Positions 2,840 to 28,921 of a stretch of 32,000 nucleotides of DNA are shown in pieces. The notes under the pieces were generated by a model. The model was not told where the DNA came from, ran no database searches, and saw only the letters and a list, made by a program, of their open reading frames with translations. The DNA comes from Planctomycetales bacterium. Lineage in GTDB: Bacteria; 4484-113; JAFGCY01. The stretch lies in the NCBI GenBank assembly GCA_022646745.1, contig CP060262.1, forward strand, positions 1,710,001 through 1,742,000, given 5' to 3'. A program made the position numbers and the translations under genes. Every line of letters starts with the position of its first letter. The stretch's first letter is position 1.

Positions 2840-3126
2840 TCAGGGATCGGGTACCTGGGACCGGGGACCAGATGAGAGACAGATGTGAGGGACCCGGGAC
2901 CAGCCTGAGGTCAGATTTCACAGTATCGCTACCTTGTTCCTGGGGTCAGGAATCCACCATTTTTCAGTGGCGTGGTTCCTGGGACCGGAGTGGAGTCAAT
3001 GGTATGAGTTTTCGTTCCGGCTCCCTGATTCCTGCTCCCTTCTTCTGGTCCCAGGTCCCGGGTCCCCGGTCCCTGATTCCCGGTCCCTACTTCTGGTCCC
3101 AGGTCCCGGGTCCCCGGTCCCTGATT
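2840..3126. repeat. ORF-less intergenic cassette bounded by GGGACCN-heptamer inverted repeats
   Basis: 2840-2871 pairs with 3093-3124 read backwards at 28 of 32 positions, plus 2 G-T pairs. The left arm is G-rich with a 7-nt period (tcaggga tcgggta cctggga ccgggga). The right arm contains a 48-nt unit x2 (3031-3078 and 3079-3126). The cassette ends 1 nt from the truB stop codon. Confidence 0.85.
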
Positions 3127-5847: not shown

Positions 5848-6825
5848 ATGCACAAGACATACGGAATAGCAATTGGAGTGCTGGTCCTGCTGCTGGCGGG
5901 CTCCGTGGCATGGGCCCAGGGCGGCCAGGGACGGCAGGGTGGTAACCGGCAGGGAGGCCGTGGACAGGATGGTGAAGGGCGGCAGGGTCGCCTGATGGAC
6001 CACATCGTCTACGGTGAGATCCTGTCGATCAGTGCGGACGAGATCGTGGTCAAGCCGATGATCCCGGAGCAGATGGCGGAGATGGCCCAGGAGCGTGGCC
6101 GCGAGCTGCCTGAGCTTCCCGCCGAAATGGCGGTTGAGATCGGGGCTGACACCAAGTTCATCATCGAGAGCGAGATGGCTTCCAGCTCCGACTTCAAGGC
6201 CGGGGACATCGTGGTCGTGGTGAAGGACAGGGACGGCATCGCCCGCACCGTGTCCGACAAGGACAGTGCCAAGCAGTTCGTCGAGCGCCGCATGGATGAG
6301 CGCGGTGGAGGCGGCGGACGCGGGCAGGGCTTCGGCCAGGGCGGACCGGGCGGTGAAGGCGGGCCGGGAGGCCATGGAGGCCCCGGCGGCCAGGGACCCG
6401 GTGGTGACCGCCGTCCGCCTGCCATGGGAAGCATCACCGCGATCAGCGCCGACAGCATCACCATCAAGCCGGAGATCCCGGAGGAGATGAAGCAGCGCAT
6501 GCAGGAGAACGGCCGCGAGCTGCCGGAACTGCCGGACAGCATCACCTGGGAGATCAGCGCGGAGACCCGCTTCGTCGGCGAGGACGGCCTGGTTGACAGT
6601 AACCCCTTCGCGGTCGGCGACAAGGTGATCGTGCTCGGTCCCCCGGATGCCGGCGGTGCCAAGGCGATCGTGGATGCAGCGCTGGCCCATGAGCGGGTGC
6701 GACAGTACCTCGAGGAGTTCGGTGGCGGCCAGGGCGGCCCCGGTGGACGCGGCGGCGCACAGGGTGGCCAGGGCGGCAAGCGCGGCGGAAAGCGTGGCGG
6801 CCAGGGCGGCCAGCGGAACCAGTAA
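5848..6825 (+). CDS. secreted protein with two ~110-aa internal repeats and GGQG/RGG low-complexity linkers
   Basis: ATG at 5848 is preferred over the track start at 5791. It has a GAGAGG RBS at 5834-5839, and the protein then starts MHKTYGIAIGVLVLLLAGSVAWAQ (signal peptide). The repeats are GEILSISADEIVVKPMIPEQM...RGRELPELP... and GSITAISADSITIKPEIPEEM...NGRELPELP... Confidence 0.75.
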   Translation: MHKTYGIAIGVLVLLLAGSVAWAQGGQGRQGGNRQGGRGQDGEGRQGRLMDHIVYGEILSISADEIVVKPMIPEQMAEMAQERGRELPELPAEMAVEIGADTKFIIESEMASSSDFKAGDIVVVVKDRDGIARTVSDKDSAKQFVERRMDERGGGGGRGQGFGQGGPGGEGGPGGHGGPGGQGPGGDRRPPAMGSITAISADSITIKPEIPEEMKQRMQENGRELPELPDSITWEISAETRFVGEDGLVDSNPFAVGDKVIVLGPPDAGGAKAIVDAALAHERVRQYLEEFGGGQGGPGGRGGAQGGQGGKRGGKRGGQGGQRNQ

Positions 6826-6893
6826 CTACAACCCAGACGATAATCCGGGAAGCGGGAAAGAGGGCTTCCCGGGATATCCATCCCCCACCCATC

Positions 6894-6924
6894 AGGGCGC
6901 ATCGCGAGGTGCGCCCTTTTTGTT
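6894..6924 (+). terminator. rho-independent terminator of the Gly-rich protein gene
   Basis: An 8-bp GC stem (agggcgca / tgcgccct) with an 8-nt loop is followed by tttttgtt. Confidence 0.65.
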
Positions 6925-6925
6925 A

Positions 6926-7136
6926 GGTTGCAGGGTGCAGGGAGCAGGTTGCAGATCCGGGATGAGGTATGCGGGATGTGGGATGTGGGAGCGCGTAGCG
7001 CAGGCATGCGTAAGCCTGACACAGCTGCGCATTTGCGGGAAGCGGAGGGGTGCAACTTGCTTGCACGCAATGCAATGGTAGAACGGAGGTGCGACACTGG
7101 CTGTCGCATCTCCTCATCCCCCATCCCTCATCCCGC
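6926..7136. repeat. ORF-less cassette bounded by GGGATGN-type heptamer arrays
   Basis: Nine in-phase G-rich heptamers span 6926-6988 (ggttgca gggtgca gggagca ggttgca gatccgg gatgagg tatgcgg gatgtgg gatgtgg). C-rich heptamers span 7107-7134. 6971-6990 is complementary to 7117-7136 at 17/20. The interior holds strong hairpins, for example ggaggtgcgaca-ctggc-tgtcgcatctcc at 7085-7113. Confidence 0.8.
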
Positions 7137-7154
7137 TCTGGCCTGAGGCCAGAG

Positions 7155-8519
7155 CTACAGGTCCGCGCTCTCCATGTAACCCGGCACATGGCACAGCCAG
7201 TCCAGCTCATGCGTGATGCGCTCGCGCATGGAGTCGGCGGCGTTCTCCTCACCATGCGTGATGAAGGTGTTCCGCGGGCGTTTCTCGATGCTGCCCAGCC
7301 AGTCCATGATCTCGCGGTAGTCGGCGTGCGCGCTCATGTTTGACAACTGCTCCACCTCGCAGTTGATCGGCACGTCGTCACCGAAGATGCGGATGCGGTC
7401 CATCCCTTCGAGGATCTTGCGGCCGCGGGAGCCCGCCGCCTGGTAGCCGGCGAACAGGATCATGTTCTTCGGGTCAGGTGCGAAGGCCTTGATGTGGTGC
7501 ACCACGCGCCCGCCGGTTGCCATTCCGCTGGCGGAGATGATCACCTTGGCCTGGCGGTTGAGGTTCAGCTCCTTGCTGTCCTCCACGCTGTTGACATAGC
7601 TGACCTTGTCGAACACCTTGCGCAGGTAGTTGCAGTCGATGCGGTGGCTGTCGGAGCAGTCGTCATAGATGTCCGTCGCGTTGACAGCCATCGGCGAGTT
7701 GACGTAGACCGGCACCTGCGGCACGTCCCGGCGTTCCATGATCTCCGAGATGAACAGGATCAGCTGCTGCGTGCGGCCGACTGCGAAGCTCGGGATCACC
7801 ACGGTGCCGCCGCGCTCCAGCGTGCGCTTCAGGCATTTCGCCAGCCCGATGCGCGGGTCGATGTCCTCATGCAGGCGGTCGCCGTAGGTGGACTCGCACA
7901 GCAGGTAGTCCGCTTCGTGGTAGGGCGTGGGCGGCACGAGGATCTCGTCCTTCAGGCGGCCGATGTCGCCGCTGAACAGGATCTTCTTATCGCCCAGCTT
8001 CAGCATCAGGTGCGCCGCGCCGAGGATGTGCCCGGCGGGCAGCCACTGCGCACTGATCCCGTCCGCGATGTCCAGCCAGTCGCCGAAGCGGACCGACTTG
8101 AATAGCCCCAGCGCCTTCTCACCATCCTCCGCGGTGTACAGCGGCTGCGGGTCCTCATGCTTGGAGTAGCCCTTGCGCTTGGCGTACTTCGCATCCTCCT
8201 CCTGCAGGTAGCCGCTGTCCGGCAGCAGGATACGGCACAGCTTCTGCGTGGCCGGGGTGCAGTACACCGTGCCATTGAAGCCGAGCTTCTTCAGGCGCGG
8301 GATGTAGCCCGAGTGGTCGATGTGTGCATGCGTCAGCAGCACAGTGTCGATCTGGGAGGGCTTGATCGGGAAGTCGTCCCAGTTGCGCAGGCGCAGGGGC
8401 TTCAAGCCCTGGAACAGGCCGCAGTCCACGAGGATCTGCTGGCCGGCGTACTCCACGAGGTACTTGGAGCCGGTCACCGTCTGGGCGGCACCGAGGAAGG
8501 TCAGCTTGATGTTGCTCAC
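7155..8519 (-). CDS. MBL-fold beta-CASP ribonuclease (RNase J / CPSF-like)
   Basis: 454 aa with a GTG start. LTFLGAAQTVTGSKYL and LLTHAHIDHSGYIP (the HxHxDH metallo-beta-lactamase motif) are present, with the beta-CASP and C-terminal RNA-specificity region (SAHAD). Confidence 0.85.
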   Translation of the reverse strand: MSNIKLTFLGAAQTVTGSKYLVEYAGQQILVDCGLFQGLKPLRLRNWDDFPIKPSQIDTVLLTHAHIDHSGYIPRLKKLGFNGTVYCTPATQKLCRILLPDSGYLQEEDAKYAKRKGYSKHEDPQPLYTAEDGEKALGLFKSVRFGDWLDIADGISAQWLPAGHILGAAHLMLKLGDKKILFSGDIGRLKDEILVPPTPYHEADYLLCESTYGDRLHEDIDPRIGLAKCLKRTLERGGTVVIPSFAVGRTQQLILFISEIMERRDVPQVPVYVNSPMAVNATDIYDDCSDSHRIDCNYLRKVFDKVSYVNSVEDSKELNLNRQAKVIISASGMATGGRVVHHIKAFAPDPKNMILFAGYQAAGSRGRKILEGMDRIRIFGDDVPINCEVEQLSNMSAHADYREIMDWLGSIEKRPRNTFITHGEENAADSMRERITHELDWLCHVPGYMESADL

Positions 8520-8532
8520 GGTCTAACTATAA

Positions 8533-8881
8533 GGGATGGGGGATGCGGGATGGGGGATGGGGAGGGTGCGTCACGCCACGGCGTGACTTGCGCACAATGG
8601 GATGGGGGATGCGGGATGGGCAGAATGGGATGTGGGATGTGGGATGGGCAGTAGTCAGTGGGCAGGGAGACTTAGCGGCGACATGTTGTCGCCTGATCTT
8701 CCAGGAACCTATCCGCTCAATGCCGTCTGGGAGGCGTAGGGCAAGGCCATCGTGCCTTGCCCAGGATGGCGACAGCCATCCGGTTGGAAAGCACTTGCCA
8801 AAATTGCTGTCGCCTATGCCGACAGGCACAGGCTTGCGATCTTCATCTGCTCATCCCGCATCCCCCATTCCACATCCCTCA
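8533..8881. repeat. cassette bounded by GGGATGN heptamer arrays, with hairpins and a 55-nt conserved element inside
   Basis: G-rich heptamers span 8533-8566 and 8599-8667 (gggatgg gggatgc gggatgg gcagaat gggatgt gggatgt gggatgg gcagtag tcagtgg). C-rich heptamers span 8852-8878. 8533-8559 pairs with 8852-8878 at 23/27 plus 1 wobble. The last heptamer runs directly into the stop codon (tca, 8879-8881) of the PKD gene. Confidence 0.85.
8731..8785 (+). repeat. conserved 55-nt GTAG-headed double-hairpin element (REP-like), copy 1
   Basis: The sequence is gaggcGTAGggcaaggccatcgtgccttgcccaggatggcgacagccatccggtt. It has a 9-bp stem gggcaaggc/gccttgccc and a 7-bp stem ggatggc/gccatcc. It matches the reverse complement of 16742-16796 at 48 of 55 positions. 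Confidence 0.8.
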
Positions 8882-11548
8882 GCTGCTGCGGATCGCCACC
8901 CTGAGCGTGTTCACATCGCTGTCAAAGCGGCTGTAGCAGACGATGCTGTTGCCATTGGCAAAATGTGCGAGGTCCACGAACACATCTGCGCTGCCGGGCG
9001 TGAAGGTATTGGGACTTGCCGAGATGTCCTCAATGGTCCAGCTGCCCTCGTCCTGGATTGCGAAGCGCACGTGCGTGCCGCTGCCGTCGAACTCCGTGTA
9101 GGCGATGCAGGCCGTACCATCCGGCATATAAGCCAGCTGCGAAACCAGCGCGATTTCCTCGCCACTTCCTGTATCGGTGACAATGGTGATGTCCTCGTCG
9201 GCAAGCACTGTGTCATCCTCTGCCAGTTCCGTATAGCGCAGGCCGGTGTCGGTGCCGCTGATGCTCTGGTAGCTCATGCCGGTGTAGCTGCCAGGCAGGA
9301 TGTCAATGCTTCCGAACAGGCCGCTGTCAGCATTGGCAAAGGGATTTGCCCAGTTGCCACCGTCCTCACGCAGGTACAGGCCGCCAGCCAGGCTGGCCTG
9401 CATCTCGCCAGTGGTGTCGTGGTAGCGCATATGCGGGAATGTCAGGCCGGTGCCGAAGCCGTACCAGCGGGTGTAGGTCAGGTTCCCGGGGGTGCTGGCC
9501 GGGTCATACGTCAGGTCGTAATAGTTCAGGTCCTGGGCGTTGAGCGTCGGACTGTTCGAGTTCTCGACGCAGTTGCTGATGCCGAAGTGGGTGTTGACCG
9601 GGTTGTAGTCAATCCCCGTCCAGATCGCGCCGTCTCGCGCCAGCTGGGCCTCGGTCGCAATGTTGCTCAGGTAGAAGTTGTACCAGGTCGGCACTTCATT
9701 CGTGATGTTCAATGCGCTGAAGCCCACAACCGAGTTTTCGGCCGGCACGGCGGCGGCTGGGTCGATGTAGACCAGCGACACGCGTGGCAGGTTCTCCCCG
9801 TCCGCAAAGCCGATATCGGTGAATGCAGGGAAGCCCGGTGGCACGATCGCCCCCAGCAGGTCAGTATTGGTCCAGTTCGCGGGAGCCGCCAGGTCCAGGG
9901 TGCTGTCGCCGATCACGACAAAGGGCTTCAGTACATTCGGATCCAGGTTTGCATAGGCCACCATCGGGTTGCCATTGCTGGCAACGGCCACGCTCGGTGT
10001 CCAGCCACCGTCCGTGCCGGTGATTGTTGACAGGTCCACTTCCGTCCACTGGAAGGTGGGCTCGCCTGTCACCTCAAAGCTGAAGTTCAGTGTGTCATTG
10101 CCAAAGGAGTTGGATGCAGTCACGCTGCATTCGTAGATGCCGGGTGCGCCCAGCGTTTCCAGCGGGTTCTCGTCAGGGCTCGTGGCCGGCGTGGCGGCCG
10201 GGCCGAACTGCCAGTCCCAGGTGTCAACCGTGCCGGTGTAGCTCGGTGTGAAAGTGATTTCCGCCCCACTTGCACCGCTGAGCGGATCAACCGAGATGAT
10301 CACCGGCGCCTCGCCGGACTGCGTGACTTCGAAGCTGAAGTCGAACTGGTCGCTGCCGAACAGGTTCGTGGCGGTCACGCTGCAGTTGTAGGTGCCTGGC
10401 TCGCCCAGTTCCACATCCGGGCTTTCCAGCGTGCTGCTGTCCGGGTTGCCAGCGCCGTTGAATTGCCAGTCCCAGCTGTCAACGGTGCCGCTGAACTCCG
10501 GGATGAAAGTGACAATGCTGCCGCTTTCGCCGGACAGCGGGCTGACCGCCGTCACATCCGGTGCCGCGCCCGTCACCGGGCCGACTTCCAGCGTGAAGTT
10601 GAACACCGCCTCGCCGAAGCGTGACAGCGCCGTCACGCTGGCACTGTAGCTGCCCTCGGCACCGAGCGTGATCTGCGGGCTCTCCTCCGTGCTTGTGTTG
10701 GGGCTGGCGCCACCGCCGAAGTTCCACTCCCAGCTTTCCACCAGGTTGCTCACACTGGCGACGGGCTGGATCTGTGCGCCGGTCTCGCCACTGCTCGGGC
10801 TGACACTGCCCACTTCCGGCGCGCTGCGGTCCACGTCGAAGCCGACGCGGTCCAGCTGGATGCCATTGCCGTCATGCGTCAGCACGAACAGGAACACGTT
10901 GCCAAGCGGGGAAACGTAGTCGGCATAGGCCGTCAGGGTCTTCGTGTAGGTCTCACTCTCGCTGCGGTCGAGGATTTCCCAGCGGCCGCTTGCATAGTTG
11001 GCCAGCCCGACGAGGAAGCCCGGGCTGCCACCGGTGAAGTTCACGTTGCTGGTCTCGATCGTCAGCTTGTTGAAGCCGAGGTCACCGTTGACATCGGGCA
11101 GCATGTAGATCGCCCAGTTGCGCTGGCCGGCCCCGGTGAACATGCTGAGGCTGGTATTGCTGACAACCGCATTGGAGGACTTGTCGAAGGCATCCGCCCC
11201 ATCCTTCCATTCTCGGCCGATCCCGCTGGCACTGCGCGATCCCGAAAGATCCGCTTCCATGCCAGACAGGGAAGGCAGGCCGCTGTCACGTGCGACGAAC
11301 AGGCTGCTGAGTGCCGGGTCGAGTGCATTGGCGGAATCCAGCGGGATGCTCGAGAAAATGGACTGCGAGTCAGTCCGGTCCACGTTGGCTGTTCCCGCAT
11401 CCGTGCCCAGCGCCGGTCTCAGTGACTTCCCGGCCTGTACGGAGCGGTCTCCGACACTGTCCAGCCCGTCACGGGAGTGCTGGCTGCCGGAGCAACCGAT
11501 CAACACCGCTGCAATAAGCAGCATCAGGGCCCAGTTCACAATCCTCAT
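8879..11548 (-). CDS. surface lipoprotein with three PKD-like domains and a C-terminal repeat (propeller-like) region
   Basis: ATG at 11548 with a GGAGA RBS is preferred over the GTG at 11560. The signal peptide and lipobox are MRIVNWALMLLIAAVLIGC. Three ~85-aa repeats carry W(E/D)WxF(G/N)G motifs. The C-terminal blocks (NGNPMVAY..., IACIAYTEFDGSGTHVRFA, NGNSIVCYSRFDSDVNTLRVA) resemble the tail of the 1433-aa protein. Confidence 0.8.
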   Translation of the reverse strand: MRIVNWALMLLIAAVLIGCSGSQHSRDGLDSVGDRSVQAGKSLRPALGTDAGTANVDRTDSQSIFSSIPLDSANALDPALSSLFVARDSGLPSLSGMEADLSGSRSASGIGREWKDGADAFDKSSNAVVSNTSLSMFTGAGQRNWAIYMLPDVNGDLGFNKLTIETSNVNFTGGSPGFLVGLANYASGRWEILDRSESETYTKTLTAYADYVSPLGNVFLFVLTHDGNGIQLDRVGFDVDRSAPEVGSVSPSSGETGAQIQPVASVSNLVESWEWNFGGGASPNTSTEESPQITLGAEGSYSASVTALSRFGEAVFNFTLEVGPVTGAAPDVTAVSPLSGESGSIVTFIPEFSGTVDSWDWQFNGAGNPDSSTLESPDVELGEPGTYNCSVTATNLFGSDQFDFSFEVTQSGEAPVIISVDPLSGASGAEITFTPSYTGTVDTWDWQFGPAATPATSPDENPLETLGAPGIYECSVTASNSFGNDTLNFSFEVTGEPTFQWTEVDLSTITGTDGGWTPSVAVASNGNPMVAYANLDPNVLKPFVVIGDSTLDLAAPANWTNTDLLGAIVPPGFPAFTDIGFADGENLPRVSLVYIDPAAAVPAENSVVGFSALNITNEVPTWYNFYLSNIATEAQLARDGAIWTGIDYNPVNTHFGISNCVENSNSPTLNAQDLNYYDLTYDPASTPGNLTYTRWYGFGTGLTFPHMRYHDTTGEMQASLAGGLYLREDGGNWANPFANADSGLFGSIDILPGSYTGMSYQSISGTDTGLRYTELAEDDTVLADEDITIVTDTGSGEEIALVSQLAYMPDGTACIAYTEFDGSGTHVRFAIQDEGSWTIEDISASPNTFTPGSADVFVDLAHFANGNSIVCYSRFDSDVNTLRVAIRSS

Positions 11549-11600
11549 GCCTGTCTCCACCGGTAGTGAGAGTTCACATGAGTTTAACAGAACTCAATAC

Positions 11601-11635
11601 TCAGGGACCTGGGACCGGGGATCTGGGACCGGGGA
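11601..11635. repeat. left inverted-repeat arm (GGGACCN heptamers) of the four-helix-bundle cassette
   Basis: The arm reads tcaggga cctggga ccgggga tctggga ccgggga. 11601-11630 pairs with 12311-12340 at 26/30 plus 1 G-T. Confidence 0.85.
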
Positions 11636-11714
11636 AAGCCAATGCCTACTGGAGTATCGAGCTGGTTTGGTAATCTGTGCGGTTCTTGCGCTATTTACAA
11701 AAATGAGGAAATAA

Positions 11715-11743
11715 TTGACTTTATTGTAGTTACAGGTTACTAT
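11715..11743 (+). promoter_or_regulatory. sigma70-like promoter for the four-helix-bundle gene
   Basis: TTGACT (11715-11720), a 17-nt spacer, then TACTAT (11738-11743), in an A/T-rich patch. AGGAG lies at 11761-11765. Confidence 0.55.
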
Positions 11744-11772
11744 ACAAATGTACACACTAAAGGAGCGTGCAA

Positions 11773-12150
11773 ATGGATGCAGTTTCTTACAAGGACCTGA
11801 TTGTCTGGCAACTGGCAATGGATTTCGTTGCAGAGATCTACCGGCTCACCGGATCATTCCCGAGGGACGAAATGTACGGGATGACTTCACAGATCCGCAG
11901 GGCAGCGGTTTCCATTCCTGCCAACATCGCGGAAGGCAATGGCAGGGCGAGTCGGCGGGATTATGCCCACTTCGTGTCCATCGCCCTTGCTTCAGCCAGG
12001 GAGATTGAAACCCTGCTACTGATATCCAGGGGGCTCGGATTCATTTCCAGCGGACATGCTGAAGAGTTAGACAGCAAGCTGGATGAAATTGCGAGGATGC
12101 TGTTCAGCATGCACCGTAAACTGGCAACACCGGTAGTTGGCACAAACTGA
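11773..12150 (+). CDS. four-helix-bundle protein (23S rRNA intervening-sequence protein / DGR Avd family)
   Basis: MDAVSYKDLIVWQLAMDFVAEIYRLTGSFPRDEMYGMTSQIRRAAVSIPANIAEGNGR.S.RDY..F..IA.AS..E is the hallmark pattern of this family. ATG at 11773 is 7 nt after the AGGAG; the track start at 11767 is a GTG. Confidence 0.85.
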   Translation: MDAVSYKDLIVWQLAMDFVAEIYRLTGSFPRDEMYGMTSQIRRAAVSIPANIAEGNGRASRRDYAHFVSIALASAREIETLLLISRGLGFISSGHAEELDSKLDEIARMLFSMHRKLATPVVGTN

Positions 12151-12220
12151 TGCAGGAAGCTGGGCCGGATCGGAGTCGGTGACACTGAGCCTTGTTGTCA
12201 GACTCTCGTATGACATCTTG

Positions 12221-12340
12221 CCGGTCCCAGATCCCCGGTCCCTAGTCCCTTCTTCTGGTCCCCGGTCCCTGGTCCCTTCTTCTGGTCCCCGGTCCCTGGT
12301 CCCTTCTTCTGGTCCCCGGTCCCCGGTCCCTGGTCCCTCA
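12221..12340. repeat. right inverted-repeat arm (NGGTCCC heptamers) with a 27-nt unit x3
   Basis: The unit cccttcttctgg... recurs at 12247, 12274 and 12301 (period 27, which is three heptamers plus tcttct). The terminal 30 nt are complementary to 11601-11630. A 9-bp hairpin agtagctcc-gca-ggagctact (12341-12361) follows and overlaps the aminotransferase stop codon. Confidence 0.85.
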
Positions 12341-16245: not shown

Positions 16246-16399
16246 GAGGCCAAGCTGTAAGCTTGGCAACGGATGCCCGGTTACAAGATGTGCGCCGGAG
16301 CTCAGTCCCGCCGGAGGCCAAGCTGTAAGCTTGGCAATTGCCAGGCAGAACTGCCTGGCCTCCACCAGGGGTGCTGCATCCCGCGAAGCAGGATGCAGC
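16245..16399 (+). repeat. array of perfect hairpin modules in the 3' region of the Met-rich gene
   Basis: A 25-nt module ggaggccaagctgtaagcttggcaa occurs at 16245-16269 and 16313-16337 (stem gccaagct/agcttggc). Further hairpins are ccaggcag-aa-ctgcctgg (16341-16358) and gctgcatcc-(9 nt)-ggatgcagc (16373-16399). Confidence 0.8.
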
Positions 16400-16430
16400 C
16401 GACAGATCTGGCAACATCGATCCAATCAAG

Positions 16431-16460
16431 GGGGAGCCTCCGGGCTCCCCATTTTTGTTT
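16431..16460 (+). terminator. rho-independent terminator
   Basis: ggggagcc-tccg-ggctcccc followed by atttttgttt. Confidence 0.7.
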
Positions 16461-16510
16461 GCAATCGGCGCGGAAACCGACGTTCGCCGGCGCAGCTTCC
16501 CAGCAGCTCC

Positions 16511-16659
16511 GCCAACTGCCTTCTGCCAATAGCCTTCTGCCTTATGTCAACTACCACTGAAGCGGTAGCTCCATTGTGCGACCTGCGTCGCTGCTCCGGT
16601 ATGCTGGCCACTGGCCATTGATAACTGCCAACTGACGACCGACCACTGCCTACCACCCA
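16511..16659. repeat. C-rich heptamer arrays (solo arms) downstream of the RAYT gene
   Basis: The first block reads gccaact gccttct gccaata gccttct gccttat gtcaact accactg (16511-16559). The second reads ctggcca ctggcca ttgataa ctgccaa ctgacga ccgacca ctgccta ccaccca (16604-16659). They are related to the CAGTGGT family at 28668-28775. A 9-nt unit ctattcg.. x3 lies at 16704-16730. Confidence 0.75.
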
Positions 16660-16741
16660 CTTTTGCAGCAGCTTGAAGCAGCCTCTCTGACTTGCTGGTT
16701 CCTCTATTCGCACTATTCGAACTATTCAGACTGCTTCCAGT

Positions 16742-16796
16742 AAACGGATGGCTCAAGCCTTCCTGGGCAAGGCACGGTGGCCGTGCCCTACGCCTC
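16742..16796 (-). repeat. conserved 55-nt REP-like element, copy 2 (inverted relative to copy 1)
   Basis: The reverse complement is gaggcGTAGggcacggccaccgtgccttgcccaggaaggcttgagccatccgttt, matching 8731-8785 at 48/55. It lies 42 nt beyond the RAYT stop codon. Confidence 0.8.
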
Positions 16797-16837
16797 GCCC
16801 GCACCTCCAACTGCGCAGCTTAGCAGCAGCTCCGTTG

Positions 16838-20028: not shown

Positions 20029-20108
20029 GGGCGAGTGGCGGAATTGGCAGACGCGCCAGACTTAGGATCTGGTACTTCGGTGTGGGGGTTCGAGTCCCCC
20101 CTCGCCCA
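20029..20108 (+). tRNA. tRNA-Leu (anticodon UAG), class II with long variable arm
   Basis: Manual fold: acceptor gggcgag/ctcgccc, D arm gcg-gaattggcaga-cgc, anticodon arm ccaga-cTTAGga-tctgg, variable arm tacttcggtgt, T arm ggggg-ttcgagt-ccccc, discriminator A. CCA is not encoded. TATAAT at 20015-20020 lies just upstream. Confidence 0.88.
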
Positions 20109-20118
20109 GATCCTTTTG

Positions 20119-20386
20119 CCGTCTCGTGCGAGCACTCGACGGTCCTAGGGCGCGCAGCCACTTCGGGAGCCTGCTCCCTCAGTGCTGCAGGCACTGATTC
20201 CAATTGAGCACATTGCAGTCTCGTGCGAGCACTCGACGGTCATGGGGCGCGCAGCCACTTCGGGAGCCTGCTCCCTCAGCGCTGCAGGCACTGATTCCAA
20301 TTGAGCACATTGCCGTCTCGTGCGAGCACTCGACGGTCTTGCTTCGCGCAGCCACTTCAGGAGCCTGCTCCCTCAGCGCTGCAGGC
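20119..20386 (+). repeat. 97-bp tandem repeat, 2.8 copies, starting 10 nt after the tRNA
   Basis: Units start at 20119, 20216 and 20313 and are near-identical, differing at about nine positions between the first two copies. Each begins c(c/a)gtctcgtgcgagcactcgacggtc, followed by a 6-7-nt variable patch (ctaggg / atgggg / ttgcttc) and a gggag-cctg-ctccc hairpin. The third copy is truncated at 20386. Confidence 0.9.
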
Positions 20387-25117: not shown

Positions 25118-26083
25118 TCAGCTCATCCAGGGCAGGCGGTCGAGGTCCACATTGCCGCCGGTGAGGATCATGCCGACGCGCTTGCCGGCGATGTCCATCC
25201 GGCCGGACAGCGCGGCCGCCAGCACCGTGGCGGAGGAGGCTTCGATGATCAGGTTCGTGCGCTCCCAGAACAGGCGCATCGCTGCCGTGATCTCATCGTC
25301 GCTGACGCGCTCGACCTGCAGTTCGTAGTCGCGCATGATGCCAAAGGTCAGTTCGCTGATCCAGGCCTTCAGCCCGTCGCAGATGGTGTCTGTGTTGTCA
25401 TTGATCTGCGGGGAGCCGATGCGCAGCGAGCGCCAGGCGTCATCCGTGATCTCGGGCTCGGCTGCGATCACGCGGCAGTCCGGCGCGATGGCCTGTGTGG
25501 TGATGATCGAGCCGCAGACGATCCCGCCGCCACCGACCGGCGTCATCAGGATGTCGAGGCCGGGGCAGTCCTCGTGGAACTCGAGTGCGGCCGTGCCCTG
25601 GCCGGCGATGATGCGCGGGTCGTCAAACGGGTGAACGGAAGCCGCACCGGTGCGCTCGATGATTTCGTTGACAACACGGCGGCGGTCCTCGATGTCAGTG
25701 GTACAGAACACCACCTCCGCGCCGAGTTCGCGCACGGCATCCACCTTGAGCGCGACCGCGTCCTCGGGCATCACGAGCCAGGCCGGGATGCCGCGCATGC
25801 GGGCGGCGCGGGCCACGGCCTGGGCGTGGTTGCCGCTGGAATGGCCGACCACGCCGCGCGCGGCCTCCTCGTCCGTGAGCTGCATGATGGTGTTCAGTGC
25901 ACCGCGGATCTTGAAGGCCCCGATGCGCTGCAGGTTCTCACACTTGAAGAACACGCGCGCGCCGGTGAGCGAGTCCAGGTGTGCGCAGGTATGCACCGGT
26001 GTGCGGTGGATCCAGTCACGGATGCGGGCATGCGCGGCCTGGATGTCGGCAAACACGGGCGGCTGCTTGGGATCGGCGGACAT
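25118..26083 (-). CDS. PLP-dependent threonine/serine dehydratase (serine racemase) family enzyme
   Basis: 321 aa. Contains FFKCENLQRIGAFKIRGA (PLP lysine), SSGNHAQAVA and the GGGG loop. Confidence 0.85.
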   Translation of the reverse strand: MSADPKQPPVFADIQAAHARIRDWIHRTPVHTCAHLDSLTGARVFFKCENLQRIGAFKIRGALNTIMQLTDEEAARGVVGHSSGNHAQAVARAARMRGIPAWLVMPEDAVALKVDAVRELGAEVVFCTTDIEDRRRVVNEIIERTGAASVHPFDDPRIIAGQGTAALEFHEDCPGLDILMTPVGGGGIVCGSIITTQAIAPDCRVIAAEPEITDDAWRSLRIGSPQINDNTDTICDGLKAWISELTFGIMRDYELQVERVSDDEITAAMRLFWERTNLIIEASSATVLAAALSGRMDIAGKRVGMILTGGNVDLDRLPWMS

Positions 26084-26147
26084 AGCAGTTATAGTAGCAA
26101 TGGGACTAGGTTCTCATTTGTGTGAAATTTCTGAGAATGGCTTGACA

Positions 26148-26167
26148 AGAGAGAGAGAGAGAGAGAG
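26148..26167. repeat. (AG)10 dinucleotide microsatellite immediately after a TTGACA box
   Basis: TTGACA at 26142-26147 is followed by agagagagagagagagagag (26148-26167) and then ttaactt. It lies about 40 nt upstream of the Cys-rich gene start. Confidence 0.9.
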
Positions 26168-26206
26168 TTAACTTGAACTCAATTAATTGAATACGAGGTA
26201 ATCTTC

Positions 26207-26662
26207 ATGAAGCTTGTTGCATTTGGATATTCAGTATTGGTTGTCTCTTTGTTCTTAGCATCTACTGAGGCTAAAGCAGAATGTGACTGTCCCGTTGGCA
26301 TCTTTGGAGATTGCGCAAATTATAGCTGTAAGGTTGAGTTTACGGGAAACTCAACAGGTTCCTATCGATTCGTAGGTTCGTATCCGTGTTCCGGAGGAGG
26401 ATCTGCTAACTTTTATGTTTGGGTTGAACAATGTGATGCAGCTTTGAATTATAATTGCAGCGGACCACCTACGAATGAGTGTTGGTATAATCTCGAATGT
26501 ATTAAATGCAGCCGTACAACATGGGAAGATGGTCCACTTGGATGCTCTCCCGCGTATCCGACTGATCCTACTTCCTTCTCGATTCCTAAAATGGGTTGGT
26601 GTTGCGACATTGCTGGACATTGGGCAATACATGCTGGACATTATCATTATTGCGGAAGTTGA
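26207..26662 (+). CDS. small secreted cysteine-rich protein (14 Cys), unknown family
   Basis: GAGGT RBS. Signal peptide MKLVAFGYSVLVVSLFLASTEAKA. The mature ~127 aa has 14 Cys and a His-rich tail HWAIHAGHYHYCGS. Codons are A/T-rich, unlike both neighbouring genes. Confidence 0.7.
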   Translation: MKLVAFGYSVLVVSLFLASTEAKAECDCPVGIFGDCANYSCKVEFTGNSTGSYRFVGSYPCSGGGSANFYVWVEQCDAALNYNCSGPPTNECWYNLECIKCSRTTWEDGPLGCSPAYPTDPTSFSIPKMGWCCDIAGHWAIHAGHYHYCGS

Positions 26663-26734
26663 TAAACCGATTATCCAGAGAATTGTCATTAACAGACCTA
26701 GTACACCTAAGATTCTAACCAATAGGAGAATGAA

Positions 26735-27580
26735 ATGAGTTGCATGAGAACGAAGTCCAGATTTTTCTTGCTCTGTATGATTTTTGTAGTCTTTTATTCG
26801 GGATTTTCCTATGCAGAAGATAAAGGAATGTACCCCATTGAAGTTGAACAAGACTATTATGGTGAATTTGCTATGAGTAAGTGCCCATCCTTGGTATTTA
26901 TTAGCGAAGCACCTCAAGCCTACTTCAAAGTATTCGGAGAGTGGCCTGAGACATTCCAGGCGATCATTGACGAAGGGCTAATACGCGACAACTTAACGAT
27001 TGATGGTGAACATGTTATTTCTCCTGATGACGGAATTCTCGATGGATATTATGATCGTTTATACATCTATCGCGGTCCTCAAACTCCACCACAGATTGCC
27101 ACTATGGGAAGTGTTAAGTTGTCAGAGAACGCACAAGAACATGCAGATTCAACAGGTTTTATCAGTACTCTTCCGGATGGATCAACTGCAATGAGCTTGC
27201 CAAATCTGAAACCTCTTCATGTATATGCGGAACAAAGCAAGAGAAAACTTGAGAGTGACCCGGATCTGAATGCAAATGCAAGTGAGGCAAGGTATGGAGG
27301 CAATCTGGCAGCACATAAACTGATGGCGATTGCTTACATGTGCATGGTGGGTTCTGGTGAATATCATGCTGTGTATGGTACATTCCCTGCCAATGAGGAC
27401 TGGGAGCAGTTTGTGGACACAGGGTTCTGCCCGGTCACGAGTGACATGCTGAATCCGGCAACTGGAATGCCTTTCAACACAGACGGTTCTCCATTCAGCC
27501 TGGATTTCATGCACCTACCGAATGGTAGTTTCACGGTCAGCGTACATGGTGACAACGGAGACTATGTCAAAGCCTGGTAG
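26735..27580 (+). CDS. secreted protein of unknown function (same A/T-rich islet)
   Basis: AGGAG RBS at 26724-26728. The N-terminus has a hydrophobic signal (RFFLLCMIFVVFYSGFSYA). A weak internal duplication is visible around Y..V(F/Y)G.(W/F)P......(I/V)D.G. Confidence 0.7.
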   Translation: MSCMRTKSRFFLLCMIFVVFYSGFSYAEDKGMYPIEVEQDYYGEFAMSKCPSLVFISEAPQAYFKVFGEWPETFQAIIDEGLIRDNLTIDGEHVISPDDGILDGYYDRLYIYRGPQTPPQIATMGSVKLSENAQEHADSTGFISTLPDGSTAMSLPNLKPLHVYAEQSKRKLESDPDLNANASEARYGGNLAAHKLMAIAYMCMVGSGEYHAVYGTFPANEDWEQFVDTGFCPVTSDMLNPATGMPFNTDGSPFSLDFMHLPNGSFTVSVHGDNGDYVKAW

Positions 27581-28648: not shown

Positions 28649-28667
28649 GGGAGAAGTGTAGGGGAAA

Positions 28668-28775
28668 CCAGTGGTCAGTAGTCAGTGGTCAGAAGTCAGA
28701 TCGCATTCTTCCTGACCACCGACCACTGACCACCGACCACTGACCACCGACCACTGACCACCGACCACGGACCAC
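28668..28775. repeat. hairpin-forming inverted heptamer arrays (CAGTNGT / NNGACCA), right arm 14-nt unit x4
   Basis: The left arm is ccagtgg tcagtag tcagtgg tcagaag tcag (28668-28699). The loop is atcgcattcttc. The right arm is ctgaccaccgacca x4 (28712-28767) plus cggaccac. There are 26/32 Watson-Crick pairs on the plus strand. Four of the six mismatches are A-C, which become G-U on the minus strand. Confidence 0.85.
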
Positions 28776-28921
28776 TATGCTTCAATCGTGCACAAATGGA
28801 CGATCACACGGCCTGCACACGATAAAATCACTTCCGCAGACATACATAGGACCAGCACACAGCAGAATCCCGGCCCGGTCGAGGTCCGACCGCACATCAG
28901 GGGCCGGCAGCAGGAGCGGAT

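Follow-up and report, generated by a model that had tools for sequence, protein, structure and literature searches.

Palindromic heptamer cassettes on both sides of a beta-CASP RNase gene: probable cargo-less members of an IVS-like family in inter-ORF spacers

In a 32,000-nt stretch of DNA from a Planctomycetales bacterium (contig CP060262.1, positions 1,710,001 to 1,742,000; hereafter the window), a beta-CASP RNase gene lies between two blocks of GGGATGN and NCATCCC heptamers. A preliminary description proposed that these blocks might be linked to the RNase. We asked what the blocks are and whether they belong to this gene. Word counts, Tandem Repeats Finder (TRF), arm pairing and fold prediction gave the following features; those without a strand were assigned none.

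6925-6954: AGGTTGC/AGGGTGC heptamer array, unpaired (TRF, period 7, 4.3 copies), directly 3' of the terminator of the upstream plus-strand gene
6959-6990: left cassette, 5' G-type arm, GGGATGN x4.6 (word count, TRF, arm pairing; TRF word GGGATGT)
6991-7106: left cassette, interior of short perfect hairpins (predicted fold and cross-genome module matches)
7107-7134: left cassette, 3' C-type arm, NCATCCC (word count, TRF, arm pairing; TRF array 7107/7115-7134, CATCCCC)
7135-7155: perfect 9-bp hairpin GCTCTGGCC-TGA-GGCCAGAGC overlapping the beta-CASP stop codon (sequence and predicted fold)
7155-8519, minus strand: beta-CASP/metallo-beta-lactamase RNase-family gene, 454 aa, GTG start (Pfam Beta-Casp 2.3e-35, RMMBL 7e-18)
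8520-8532, minus strand: conserved leader CCCTTATAGTTAGACC-GTG (sequence and relatives)
8533-8648: right cassette, arrays that are G-type on the plus strand, in blocks 8533-8562 (TRF, GGGATGG x4.3) and about 8598-8648 (TRF, period 7, 7.1 copies), with an 8-bp perfect hairpin between them (word count, TRF, arm pairing, fold)
8649-8851: right cassette, interior with several perfect hairpins (sequence and predicted fold)
8852-8878: right cassette, arm that is C-type on the plus strand (word count, TRF, arm pairing; TRF word CATCCCA)

The results agreed with the layout given in the preliminary description. Word count and TRF found the same GGGATGN/NCATCCC word in both blocks (6959-7134 and 8533-8878), tight against the neighbouring gene ends. 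GGGATG occurs 44 times in the window, compared with 26.7 +/- 5.0 in shuffles (44 or more in 0 of 100), and the two blocks account for 19 of the 44. In each block the G-rich 5' arm pairs with the C-rich 3' arm, as had been stated, and these convergent (inverted) pairs are 82-93% complementary: 88% over 24 nt in the left block (6958-6981 with 7112-7135), and 82% over 33 nt (8532-8564 with 8847-8879) and 93% over 27 nt (8598-8624 with 8846-8872) in the right block. The predicted folds contained the described interiors of perfect hairpins, the block RNAs having minimum free energies of -106.2 kcal/mol (left, z -6.1) and -159.3 kcal/mol (right, z -7.4). The GGGATGN arrays match the G3N4 quadruplex pattern, with at least four repeats.

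The described borders were also found. The left block starts directly after a terminator-like hairpin with a T-run (6894-6924). On the minus-strand transcript, the 8533-8648 arrays form a C-type arm directly upstream of the beta-CASP gene, 13 nt from its GTG at 8519, while 8852-8878 reads as a G-type arm that begins one base past the PKD stop (TGA, 8879-8881, followed by GGGATG). The arrays thus abut the PKD stop (0 nt), begin 13 nt away from the beta-CASP start, and are separated from the beta-CASP stop by 21 nt occupied by one hairpin. Upstream of the beta-CASP gene neither a Shine-Dalgarno sequence nor a sigma-70-like site was found, and the two flanking cassettes likewise contained no sigma-70-like site. 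An Rfam scan of the window returned tRNA-Leu only and no rRNA. Parts of the blocks recur elsewhere: the module GGAGGTGCGACA...TGTCGCA of the left cassette (7086-7113) was found again in two related genomes (L004 and L006) and in L169 and L171, and 8731-8785 of the right interior has an inverted copy at 16742-16796 (87%). The preliminary description had not included the second heptamer family at 6925-6954, the hairpin at 7135-7155 or three further cassettes, one of which encloses a gene. An orthologue of the 6925-6954 array lies at 10874-10897 of the related genome L005, where its inverted partner ACCTGCA is retained at 10947-10972.

The further cassettes in the window were as follows.

2840-3126: cassette with a GGGACCN arm (2840-2903), an interior and a GGTCCCN arm (3017-3126); arms 36 nt, 86% complementary
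11603-12338: cargo-bearing cassette with a GGGACCN arm (11603-11635) and a GGTCCCN arm (12221-12338); arms 30 nt, 93% complementary
11773-12150, plus strand: gene for a four-helix-bundle 23S rRNA intervening-sequence protein (IVP), an uncharacterised family, inside the preceding cassette (Pfam 23S_rRNA_IVP 1.6e-39; TIGR02436)
28669-28776: cassette with a CAGTGGT-type arm (28669-28699) and a GACCACY arm (28712-28776) (TRF, arm pairing)

The window therefore holds at least five cassettes of one build, with tandem G-type heptamers 5', a hairpin-rich interior and complementary heptamers 3'; the G-type arm is 5' in all five, and cargo-less cassettes outnumber the IVP cassette four to one. The three beyond the RNase flanks use other words (GGGACCN, CAGTGGT), so that at least four unrelated words (GGGATG, GGGACC, AGGTTGC and CAGTGGT) occur within 32 kb. 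The arm motif TCCCTTCTTCTGGTCCC is present at 3040-3060 and at 12240-12330, with a close variant in L004. In the cargo-bearing cassette, an AT-rich region with a sigma-70-like site (TTGACT-17-TACTAT, 11715-11743) precedes the IVP gene, which has 54% GC against about 64% in the neighbouring genes; the low GC and the sigma-70-like site give this cargo a foreign character.

Arrays had been placed at the exact ends of transcription units. The results supported this for ORF ends, since the arrays lie 0-20 nt from stops or starts in 5/5 window cassettes and in related loci, but not for transcription units. The cassette at 2840-3126 occupies the whole spacer from the TruB stop to the FTCD start, and that at 28669-28776 lies between two divergent gene starts (28649-28921), 20 nt from a minus-strand ATG. 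The placement follows ORF ends: some cassettes separate genes that run in one direction (PKD to beta-CASP, TruB to FTCD), and others lie between convergent genes or divergent starts. A cassette spans the distance from one ORF end to the next and, on either strand, consists of a G/purine-type 5' arm, hairpin modules and a complementary 3' arm.

We then scored 64 IVP genes in 80 metagenomic IVP loci from unrelated metagenomes. Inverted flanking arms were present at 40/64 IVP genes but at only 7/158 of the remaining ORFs there (odds ratio 36, p 3e-20). The arms were mostly of period 7, with a word that varied by locus, and 88 period-7 arrays lay within 300 bp of IVP genes, compared with 46 farther off in four times more sequence. 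The G-type arm was 5' (left arm G>C) in 35 of the 40 arm-flanked loci. The same arrangement was found in 24 of 39 viral-contig IVP loci and in Anabaena sp. 90, Picosynechococcus PCC 7003, Nostoc punctiforme and Nostoc PCC 7120, cyanobacterial plasmids included. A second IVP gene of the source genome has a GAGCAGA x5 array on one side and a TCTGCTN x6.6 array on the other, and these arrays directly adjoin two stop codons. None of the 40 metagenomic IVP loci tested matched an Rfam family. The IVP gene of Azospirillum lipoferum lies within 23S rRNA (Rfam LSU, 1125.7 bits) and thus in a true intervening sequence (IVS), and the arms of this IVS, of which the G-type one is 5', are built of period-7 units (CAGAGGA CGGATGA ...). 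These results show that the complete cassette form carries a small gene, usually for a four-helix-bundle IVP, the protein family of ORF-containing 23S rRNA IVSs, and that at least one true rRNA IVS has arms of the same construction. A six-frame profile search of the RNase-flanking cassettes found no ORF and no IVP remnant, and the idea that cargo-less cassettes are decayed IVP cassettes was left unsupported by it.

Gene order around the beta-CASP gene is conserved in three related genomes (L004-L006), and the leader motif TTATAGT is kept in 4/4 related genomes. In the three relatives, the same two spacers hold GGGTTTC/GAAACCC, AGGTTGC, GGGACC, or hairpins without heptamers. Between L004 and L006 the beta-CASP proteins are 99.1% identical, while IVP proteins at the same site share 51.6% and the arm words differ; their PKD/beta-CASP spacers have unrelated sequence between identical flanks. 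The NFACT/GidA spacer holds four different cassettes in four relatives. Cassettes are thus replaced as units, with unrelated cassettes in orthologous spacers of close relatives and flanks conserved to the base. Contigs from five samples carried identical arrays, with no copy-number polymorphism among these five. Single copies of array words occur near ORF ends in relatives, namely GCATCCC in the beta-CASP leader and TATCTGC at the GidA stop.

We consider it somewhat more probable than the alternatives together, at roughly 0.55, that the RNase-flanking blocks are cargo-less representatives of a genome-wide family of palindromic heptamer cassettes, which in this lineage occupy inter-ORF spacers, resemble IVSs and turn over fast. 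The shared architecture suggests that they are akin to the IVP cassettes. The cassettes would be selfish or near-neutral DNA insertions, which may persist because each sits precisely in the gap from one coding sequence to the next, or else in an rRNA helix that is dispensable. In a read-through transcript the arms would pair into a long duplex open to RNase III cleavage, by analogy with the rRNA IVSs studied experimentally, and the arrays may lengthen and shorten through replication slippage. Mobility machinery, a target-site duplication or an empty-versus-filled pair with a clean junction was not found, and insertion is thus inferred from replacement patterns only.

The idea of the preliminary description, that the cassettes are functionally coupled to the RNase as substrates or as autoregulatory leader and trailer elements, has some points in its favour: one word flanks the gene left and right, 25 nt of the leader array can pair with the 3' array at 92% complementarity, structured spacers flank the gene on both sides in 4/4 related genomes, and neither a Shine-Dalgarno sequence nor a sigma-70-like promoter was found upstream. 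The comparison that had been suggested went against it. We scanned 80 orthologous beta-CASP loci, 77 of them distant, and period-7 arrays adjoined the gene in 0/77 distant loci, arrays being confined to the window's own lineage. In the relatives the words on the two sides differ and are mutually non-complementary, and L004 has no heptamers upstream of the gene. The same architecture also flanks unrelated gene pairs and sets (TruB/FTCD, aminotransferase/PKD, dehydrogenase and peptidase, NFACT/GidA, cas genes). These results largely refute the coupling, which we regard as very improbable. A variant in which the RNase gene is itself the cargo of a C-arm...G-arm unit fared no better: complementarity between leader and 3' flank is absent in L005 and L006, and the polarity around the beta-CASP gene is opposite to that of IVP cargo, and this variant was rejected. 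The RNase gene is part of neither cassette; it belongs to the host and stands as a bystander with an occupied spacer on each side.

A possible but rather unlikely explanation is that the arrays serve the host as regulatory spacers, that they arose on site through slippage from local seed words, and that they have been kept as G-quadruplexes, i-motifs or stem-loops that tune termination, mRNA stability or Shine-Dalgarno-independent translation, with IVP genes merely landing or surviving there. The single word copies at relatives' ORF ends could mean that arrays arise in place and do not arrive with an element, and the conserved occupancy of the same spacers, with variable content, fits a host function as well. 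Before starts the arm is always C-type and after stops always G-type; GGGATGN and GGGACCN arrays match the G3N4 quadruplex pattern, oligonucleotides of Xanthomonas and Nostoc repeats form G-quadruplexes and i-motifs in vitro, the majority of the Xanthomonas repeats are transcribed (PMC4692102), and TAACTGA heptamers of Beggiatoa lie directly upstream of start codons (PMC4679880). However, many arm words (CAGTGGT, GAGCAGA, AGTACCC, AAAAGCT) lack G-runs, and quadruplex formation was therefore rejected as a common principle. The higher-order motif TCCCTTCTTCTGGTCCC is common to distant loci of one genome, which favours copying between loci over independent slippage; arms and cargo are replaced together, and the 36-fold enrichment specific to IVP genes would require an extra assumption. 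Mismatches in the arms showed neither an excess of G.U wobble nor strand asymmetry (28 vs 37; 87 of other kinds). This test for RNA-level selection on the arms was thus negative and offers no positive sign that RNA pairing is under selection. Movement in trans as REP/BIME-like or MITE-like non-autonomous elements, by a RAYT or IS200/IS605-type transposase encoded elsewhere and with the IVP as a passenger, appears improbable. It would suit the intergenic location, the replacement of cassettes as units and the hairpin modules (GGAGGTGCGACA..TGTCGCACCTCC, GAGGCGCGCAA..TTGCGCGCCTC) scattered in mosaics across loci and genomes. REP/BIMEs of enterobacteria are likewise intergenic palindromic mosaics, often between co-transcribed or convergent genes, with strain-variable content. 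A REP unit, however, is a conserved palindrome, about 35 bp long and free of cargo genes, that a RAYT transposase recognises, whereas the cassettes are locus-specific tandem heptamers, some with a cargo gene; the arm word changes at nearly every locus, unlike transposase-recognised termini, and neither REPs nor MITEs have tandem period-7 arms. No transposase lies near the cassettes within the window, no direct duplications were found at the cassette borders, and the cassettes share neither a common terminal sequence nor the target-site duplication expected of a MITE.

The IVS-like cassette reading was also compared with published repeats. G-rich heptamers are known as GGGAATC in Xanthomonas and GGGGA(C/T)T in Nostoc (Rehm et al. 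2015, PLoS One, PMC4692102), STRR heptamers in cyanobacteria, and TAACTGA repeats in Beggiatoaceae, Cyanobacteria and Bacteroidetes (MacGregor 2015, PMC4679880). The closest description is that of Xanthomonas and Nostoc. Their repeats are also intergenic tandem G3N4-type heptamers; GGGAATC is placed against ORF ends, each Xanthomonas genome has 70-75 inverted (convergent) pairs, related species fill the same spacers with repeats that differ in length and sequence, and there is no tie to particular gene functions (PMC4692102). The cassettes here share this placement, pairing, spacer occupancy and lack of a functional tie. In the window, too, the G-rich strand follows a stop codon (coding strand) or precedes a start codon (non-coding strand) at a distance of no more than about 50 bp. 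Each published case has one dominant genome-wide word, whereas several unrelated words per genome occur here, and the arms here enclose hairpin-module interiors and sometimes a gene. Xanthomonas repeat #15 adjoins XCC0516, an IVP-family protein. IVP genes and cargo go unremarked in PMC4692102, and the repeats were generally reported there without association with mobile elements.

As far as the cited account goes, ORF-containing 23S rRNA IVSs of Leptospira and Coxiella burnetii encode S23p/IVP (Ralph & McClelland 1993, cited in Warrier et al. 2016, PMC4990558); in that account such IVSs measure about 430-750 nt, enclose the IVP ORF in a long stem of paired terminal inverted repeats, have GC below the host's as cargo cassettes do, and are distributed sporadically, which suggests horizontal transfer. 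The Coxiella IVS holds the S23p ORF and is cut by RNase III within its terminal stem (PMC4990558). Terminal inverted repeats predicted to form a long enclosing stem are present in the RNase-flanking and sister cassettes, and the Azospirillum IVS has the same period-7 arms with the G-type arm 5'; a PF05635/TIGR02436 protein is encoded in cassette 11603-12338 but not in the RNase-flanking cassettes. The rRNA IVSs lie in a 23S (or 16S) rRNA helix, whereas the window cassettes lie between protein-coding genes and, unlike ORF-containing IVSs, mostly lack an ORF. RNase III excision has been shown for the rRNA elements only (PMC4990558), while the cassettes here offer duplexes of 24-36 bp and their fold energy. 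A full-text search, with subscription journals mostly outside its scope, found no literature linking IVP and heptamers, and the IVP-family papers did not make that link.

Cyanobacterial STRR sequences date from about 1990, and bacterial heptamer repeats have been unexplained for decades. Likewise, IVP/S23p has been a protein of unexplained function since its discovery in rRNA IVSs. At a practical level, the cassettes break metagenome assemblies and put small foreign genes into operons, CRISPR-cas operons included, by which annotation can be misled. Speculatively, and with considerable doubt, IVP and inverted heptamer arrays might be one widespread, undescribed kind of element, with an Avd-like IVP pentamer as a trans-acting factor that recognises the arrays, possibly via a shared A-G-K core, and serves to propagate, protect or process them; STRR, GGGAATC and TAACTGA repeats and rRNA IVSs would then be its cargo-less and cargo-bearing forms. 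The link seen here is that IVP genes are specifically nested in inverted heptamer arrays of fixed polarity, in uncultured lineages, on cyanobacterial plasmids and viral contigs, and in one true rRNA IVS. Two puzzles thereby become one question, namely whether IVP acts on or binds the heptamer arrays and whether RNase III cuts the arms, and both features occur in the cultured organisms Xanthomonas campestris (XCC0516, crystal structure 2GSC) and Nostoc PCC 7120.

We examined the GGGATGN/NCATCCC blocks on either side of a beta-CASP RNase gene, at 6959-7134 (left) and 8533-8878 (right). The results bore out the preliminary description of this region: the sequence is as stated, and period-7 arrays with complementary arms are present in both blocks. 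The genes concerned are:

7155-8519, minus strand: beta-CASP / metallo-beta-lactamase RNase-family ORF, between the two blocks
8879-11560, minus strand: ORF with a PKD domain, the next ORF after the RNase gene

Tandem Repeats Finder detected period-7 arrays at 6959-6990, 7107-7134, 8533-8562, 8598-8648 and 8852-8878. Within each block, complementary C-rich arrays come after the G-rich ones; the arm pairs measure 24 nt (88%), 33 nt (82%) and 27 nt (93%). GGGATG occurred 44 times in the window, compared with 26.7 +/- 5.0 in shuffles, and 19 of the 44 copies fall within 6959-7134 and 8533-8878. The right block begins at the first base past the PKD stop codon and ends 13 nt short of the RNase GTG start; the left block extends from a terminator-like hairpin (6894-6917) to a 9-bp hairpin touching the RNase stop codon. 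The predicted folds of the minus-strand RNA were -159.3 kcal/mol (z -7.4) for the right block and -106.2 kcal/mol (z -6.1) for the left.

The pairing of an RNase with such elements had been considered suggestive. We compared 80 loci encoding relatives of the window RNase. Arrays adjoining the RNase gene were restricted to the window's own lineage and occurred at 0 of 77 more distant orthologue loci. The lineage consists of three MAGs, bearing the labels 'bacterium', 'Planctomycetales' and 'UBP7', whose RNase proteins are 84-88% identical to that of the window. Within the lineage both RNase-flanking spacers were always occupied, with differing contents in the related genomes L004-L006:

L005: GGGATGA/TCATCCC upstream of the RNase gene; AGGTTGC/GCAACCT downstream
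L006: GGGTTTC/GAAACCC upstream; GGGACC arrays downstream
L004: hairpins without heptamers upstream; GGGACC arrays downstream

The beta-CASP proteins of L004 and L006 are 99.1% identical; their PKD/RNase spacers are unrelated, and the sequences flanking them ('...cacagTAG' and 'tcccgcatcccttatagtagagccGTG') are conserved base for base. The absence of arrays from distant orthologues and the variable spacers within the lineage leave an association with the RNase unsupported; in a genome filled with these cassettes, its bracketing is to be expected. All four genomes keep the sequence TTATAGT some 6 nt before the beta-CASP GTG (window 8520-8532 on the minus strand; L004 9985-10000; L005 9490-9505; L006 9985-10000), and everything beyond it in the upstream direction is replaced. 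The motif may serve as the -10 box of a leaderless mRNA or, in a gene lacking a Shine-Dalgarno sequence, as an AU-rich initiation element.

Three more cassettes in the window have the architecture of the RNase-flanking blocks with other words, and one of them encloses a gene for a 23S rRNA intervening-sequence protein (IVP):

2840-3126: GGGACCN...GGTCCCN cassette
11603-12338: GGGACCN...GGTCCCN cassette
11773-12150: IVP gene, 125 aa, inside cassette 11603-12338
28669-28776: CAGTGGT...GACCACY cassette

The gene pairs that flank the window cassettes are co-directional, convergent or divergent (cassette between two starts), and 5/5 cassettes have the G-type arm 5'. Since this arrangement is identical on both strands, a G-type array always follows stop codons and a C-type array always precedes starts. 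The IVP gene has a GC content of 54% (neighbours, about 64%) and a TTGACT-17-TACTAT site 30 nt upstream of its start. Its product matched Pfam 23S_rRNA_IVP (1.6e-39) and TIGR02436 'four helix bundle protein', and the nearest solved structures were 2GSC (XCC0516, Xanthomonas campestris) and 2RLD. A second IVP gene in the same genome is flanked by GAGCAGA x5 and TCTGCTN x6.6 arrays, which directly adjoin the stop codons of a convergent gene pair. No IVP remnant was found in the two RNase-flanking cassettes.

Other repeats were also observed in the window. The spacer 16246-16837 (590 bp) is densely filled with hairpin modules in pairs and with degenerate heptamers of the C type, and 16742-16796 is an inverted copy (87%) of the right-cassette segment 8731-8785. 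A 97-bp unit, with hairpin-forming segments in every copy, is repeated 2.8 times (94% matches) at 20116-20386, beginning 8 nt past tRNA-Leu (20029-20108). Low-GC islands at 1-1000 and 26001-27000 (43% vs about 63%) may be foreign insertions; their ORFs (628-1131, 26207-26662 and 26735-27580) had no Pfam match, and the second island holds an (AG)10 run at 26148-26167. The cassettes break up assemblies: independent metagenome assemblies of the window organism (L001-L003, L084-L087) stop within heptamer arrays, at window 3097, 8553 and 12274.

We then surveyed 80 IVP loci from unrelated metagenomes (L088-L167), scoring inverted repeats between the 300-bp flanks and counting as positive a score above every shuffle. 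Flanking inverted repeats were found for 40/64 IVP genes; among the remaining complete ORFs at these loci the figure was 7/158 (odds ratio 36, p 3e-20). The arms were mostly of period 7, the word differing per locus. The 43 kb lying no more than 300 bp from IVP genes contained 88 period-7 arrays, compared with 46 in the other 174 kb. G exceeded C in the 5' arm at 35 of 40 loci. Phase-aligned in 5'-arm orientation, the heptamers of the 88 arrays showed an A(0.89)-G(0.98)-K core of 4.2 bits, compared with 3.3-3.5 for letter-shuffled heptamers, and this core could be a recognition element. The gap between an IVP gene and the neighbour on either side is about 60-70 bp and is thus filled by the arms; the upstream neighbour was co-oriented at 53/70 loci. 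The inverted-arm arrangement was also found at 24 of 39 viral-contig IVP loci, and a search of 72,556 plasmids yielded IVP genes in 27 records, 24 of them cyanobacterial. Inverted heptamer arrays surround IVP genes between cas6 and cas4 in Anabaena sp. 90 (L172, pANA02) and between cas10 and cmr3 in Picosynechococcus PCC 7003 (L176). Heptamer-armed IVP genes inside CRISPR-cas operons (these two and L175, Pseudanabaena galeata) are co-oriented with the cas genes, a placement that may explain the listing of IVP as cas-associated. In Nostoc punctiforme and Nostoc PCC 7120, arrays adjoin the IVP genes on one side or both.

An IVP match on an Azospirillum lipoferum plasmid sits within a 23S rRNA gene (Rfam LSU 1125.7 bits) and is therefore a true intervening sequence (IVS). 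Its arms consist of period-7 units (CAGAGGA CGGATGA CAGAGGA CGGAGGA and complement), with the G-type arm 5'. Rfam matches were found in 0/40 metagenomic IVP loci. These results indicate that the intergenic cassettes have one architecture in common with the rRNA IVS, the intergenic form apparently being the more frequent.

To follow cassette turnover, we compared sites among related genomes. At the aminotransferase/PKD site, the window and L004 have a GGGACC-armed cassette in common, with IVP proteins 79% identical, and L006, a close relative of L004, has other arms and another IVP (51.6% identical). The L006 arms are GGGTGTAG/CTACMCCC words, not clean heptamers, and its IVP gene (6599-6990, minus strand), with an in-frame TAA at codon 9, is probably a pseudogene. 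The NFACT/GidA site holds four different cassettes in four related genomes:

Cassette 1: IVP gene, GAGCAGA arms
Cassette 2: cargo-less, GGTTGGT array and hairpin modules
Cassette 3: cargo-less, long inverted hairpin modules
Cassette 4 (locus L168, 4640-5330): 94-aa non-IVP ORF between GTCAGTN and ACTGACN arrays

The 94-aa ORF has its own AT-rich upstream region and weak, sub-threshold winged-helix similarity (MarR/TrmB/DUF2250). A higher-order arm motif, TCCCTTCTTCTGGTCCC, and hairpin modules, GGAGGTGCGACA...TGTCGCACCTCC, recur across loci and genomes. Judged from these comparisons, the replaced cassettes and shared motifs and modules indicate that cassettes change as units and that parts are copied between loci. 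In relatives, lone array words occur at the ends of ORFs: the leader of the RNase gene contains GCATCCC, and TATCTGC lies at the GidA stop. Local seeding and array contraction would look alike here. Large arrays in L004 (1243-1923 and 19627-19900) have units of 52 bp and 90 bp composed of the lineage's hairpin modules (GTTGCCGGA..., TGTGCGACA...TGTCGCACCTCC), together with 8-mer arrays (TTGACTCA/GACTCGGC); the lineage also produces tandem repeats of period other than 7.

The cassettes keep one architecture and polarity, nest IVP genes specifically, have their architecture in common with one rRNA IVS, are replaced whole and lie against ORF ends. We propose, with a probability of roughly 0.55, that they are IVS-like insertions. 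They might instead be host regulatory repeats made in place, the main rival, which we consider rather unlikely. Three results weaken the IVS-like reading: no mobility mechanism was found for the cassettes, the two RNase-flanking cassettes contained no IVP remnant, and arm mismatches showed no wobble excess, so that the complementarity looks as if it was made at the DNA level, not selected at the RNA level. As IVS-like insertions, the cassettes would be tolerated because they are located exactly between coding sequences. Upon transcription, the arms would pair as a duplex of 24-36 bp or more, cleavable by RNase III by analogy with the Coxiella IVS, for which such cleavage has been demonstrated (PMC4990558), and array length would change through slippage.

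The closest published description concerns GGGAATC (Xanthomonas) and GGGGA(C/T)T (Nostoc) repeats (Rehm et al. 2015, PMC4692102). These are intergenic and of unknown function, lie up to 50 bp after stops (coding strand) or before starts (non-coding strand), sometimes overlap stop codons, and form 70-75 inverted repeat pairs per Xanthomonas genome; related species have the same spacers occupied, with varying sequence (PMC4692102). Repeat #15 of its supplementary table, between XCC0517 and XCC0516, overlaps the start of XCC0516, entered merely as a conserved hypothetical gene (PMC4692102). XCC0516 is the IVP-family protein of crystal structure 2GSC. TAACTGA heptamers directly upstream of start codons (MacGregor 2015, PMC4679880) correspond, in the terms used here, to a C-type arm. 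A survey of CPR rRNA insertions still termed IVP functionally uncharacterised (PMC11270868). Full-text searches, incomplete in coverage and thus giving absence of evidence only, found no literature linking IVP genes with heptamer arrays; papers naming the family mention it without this link. The cassette family is distinguished by its many words per genome, its hairpin-module interiors and its gene cargo, and it links heptamer repeats with IVP and with the rRNA IVS.
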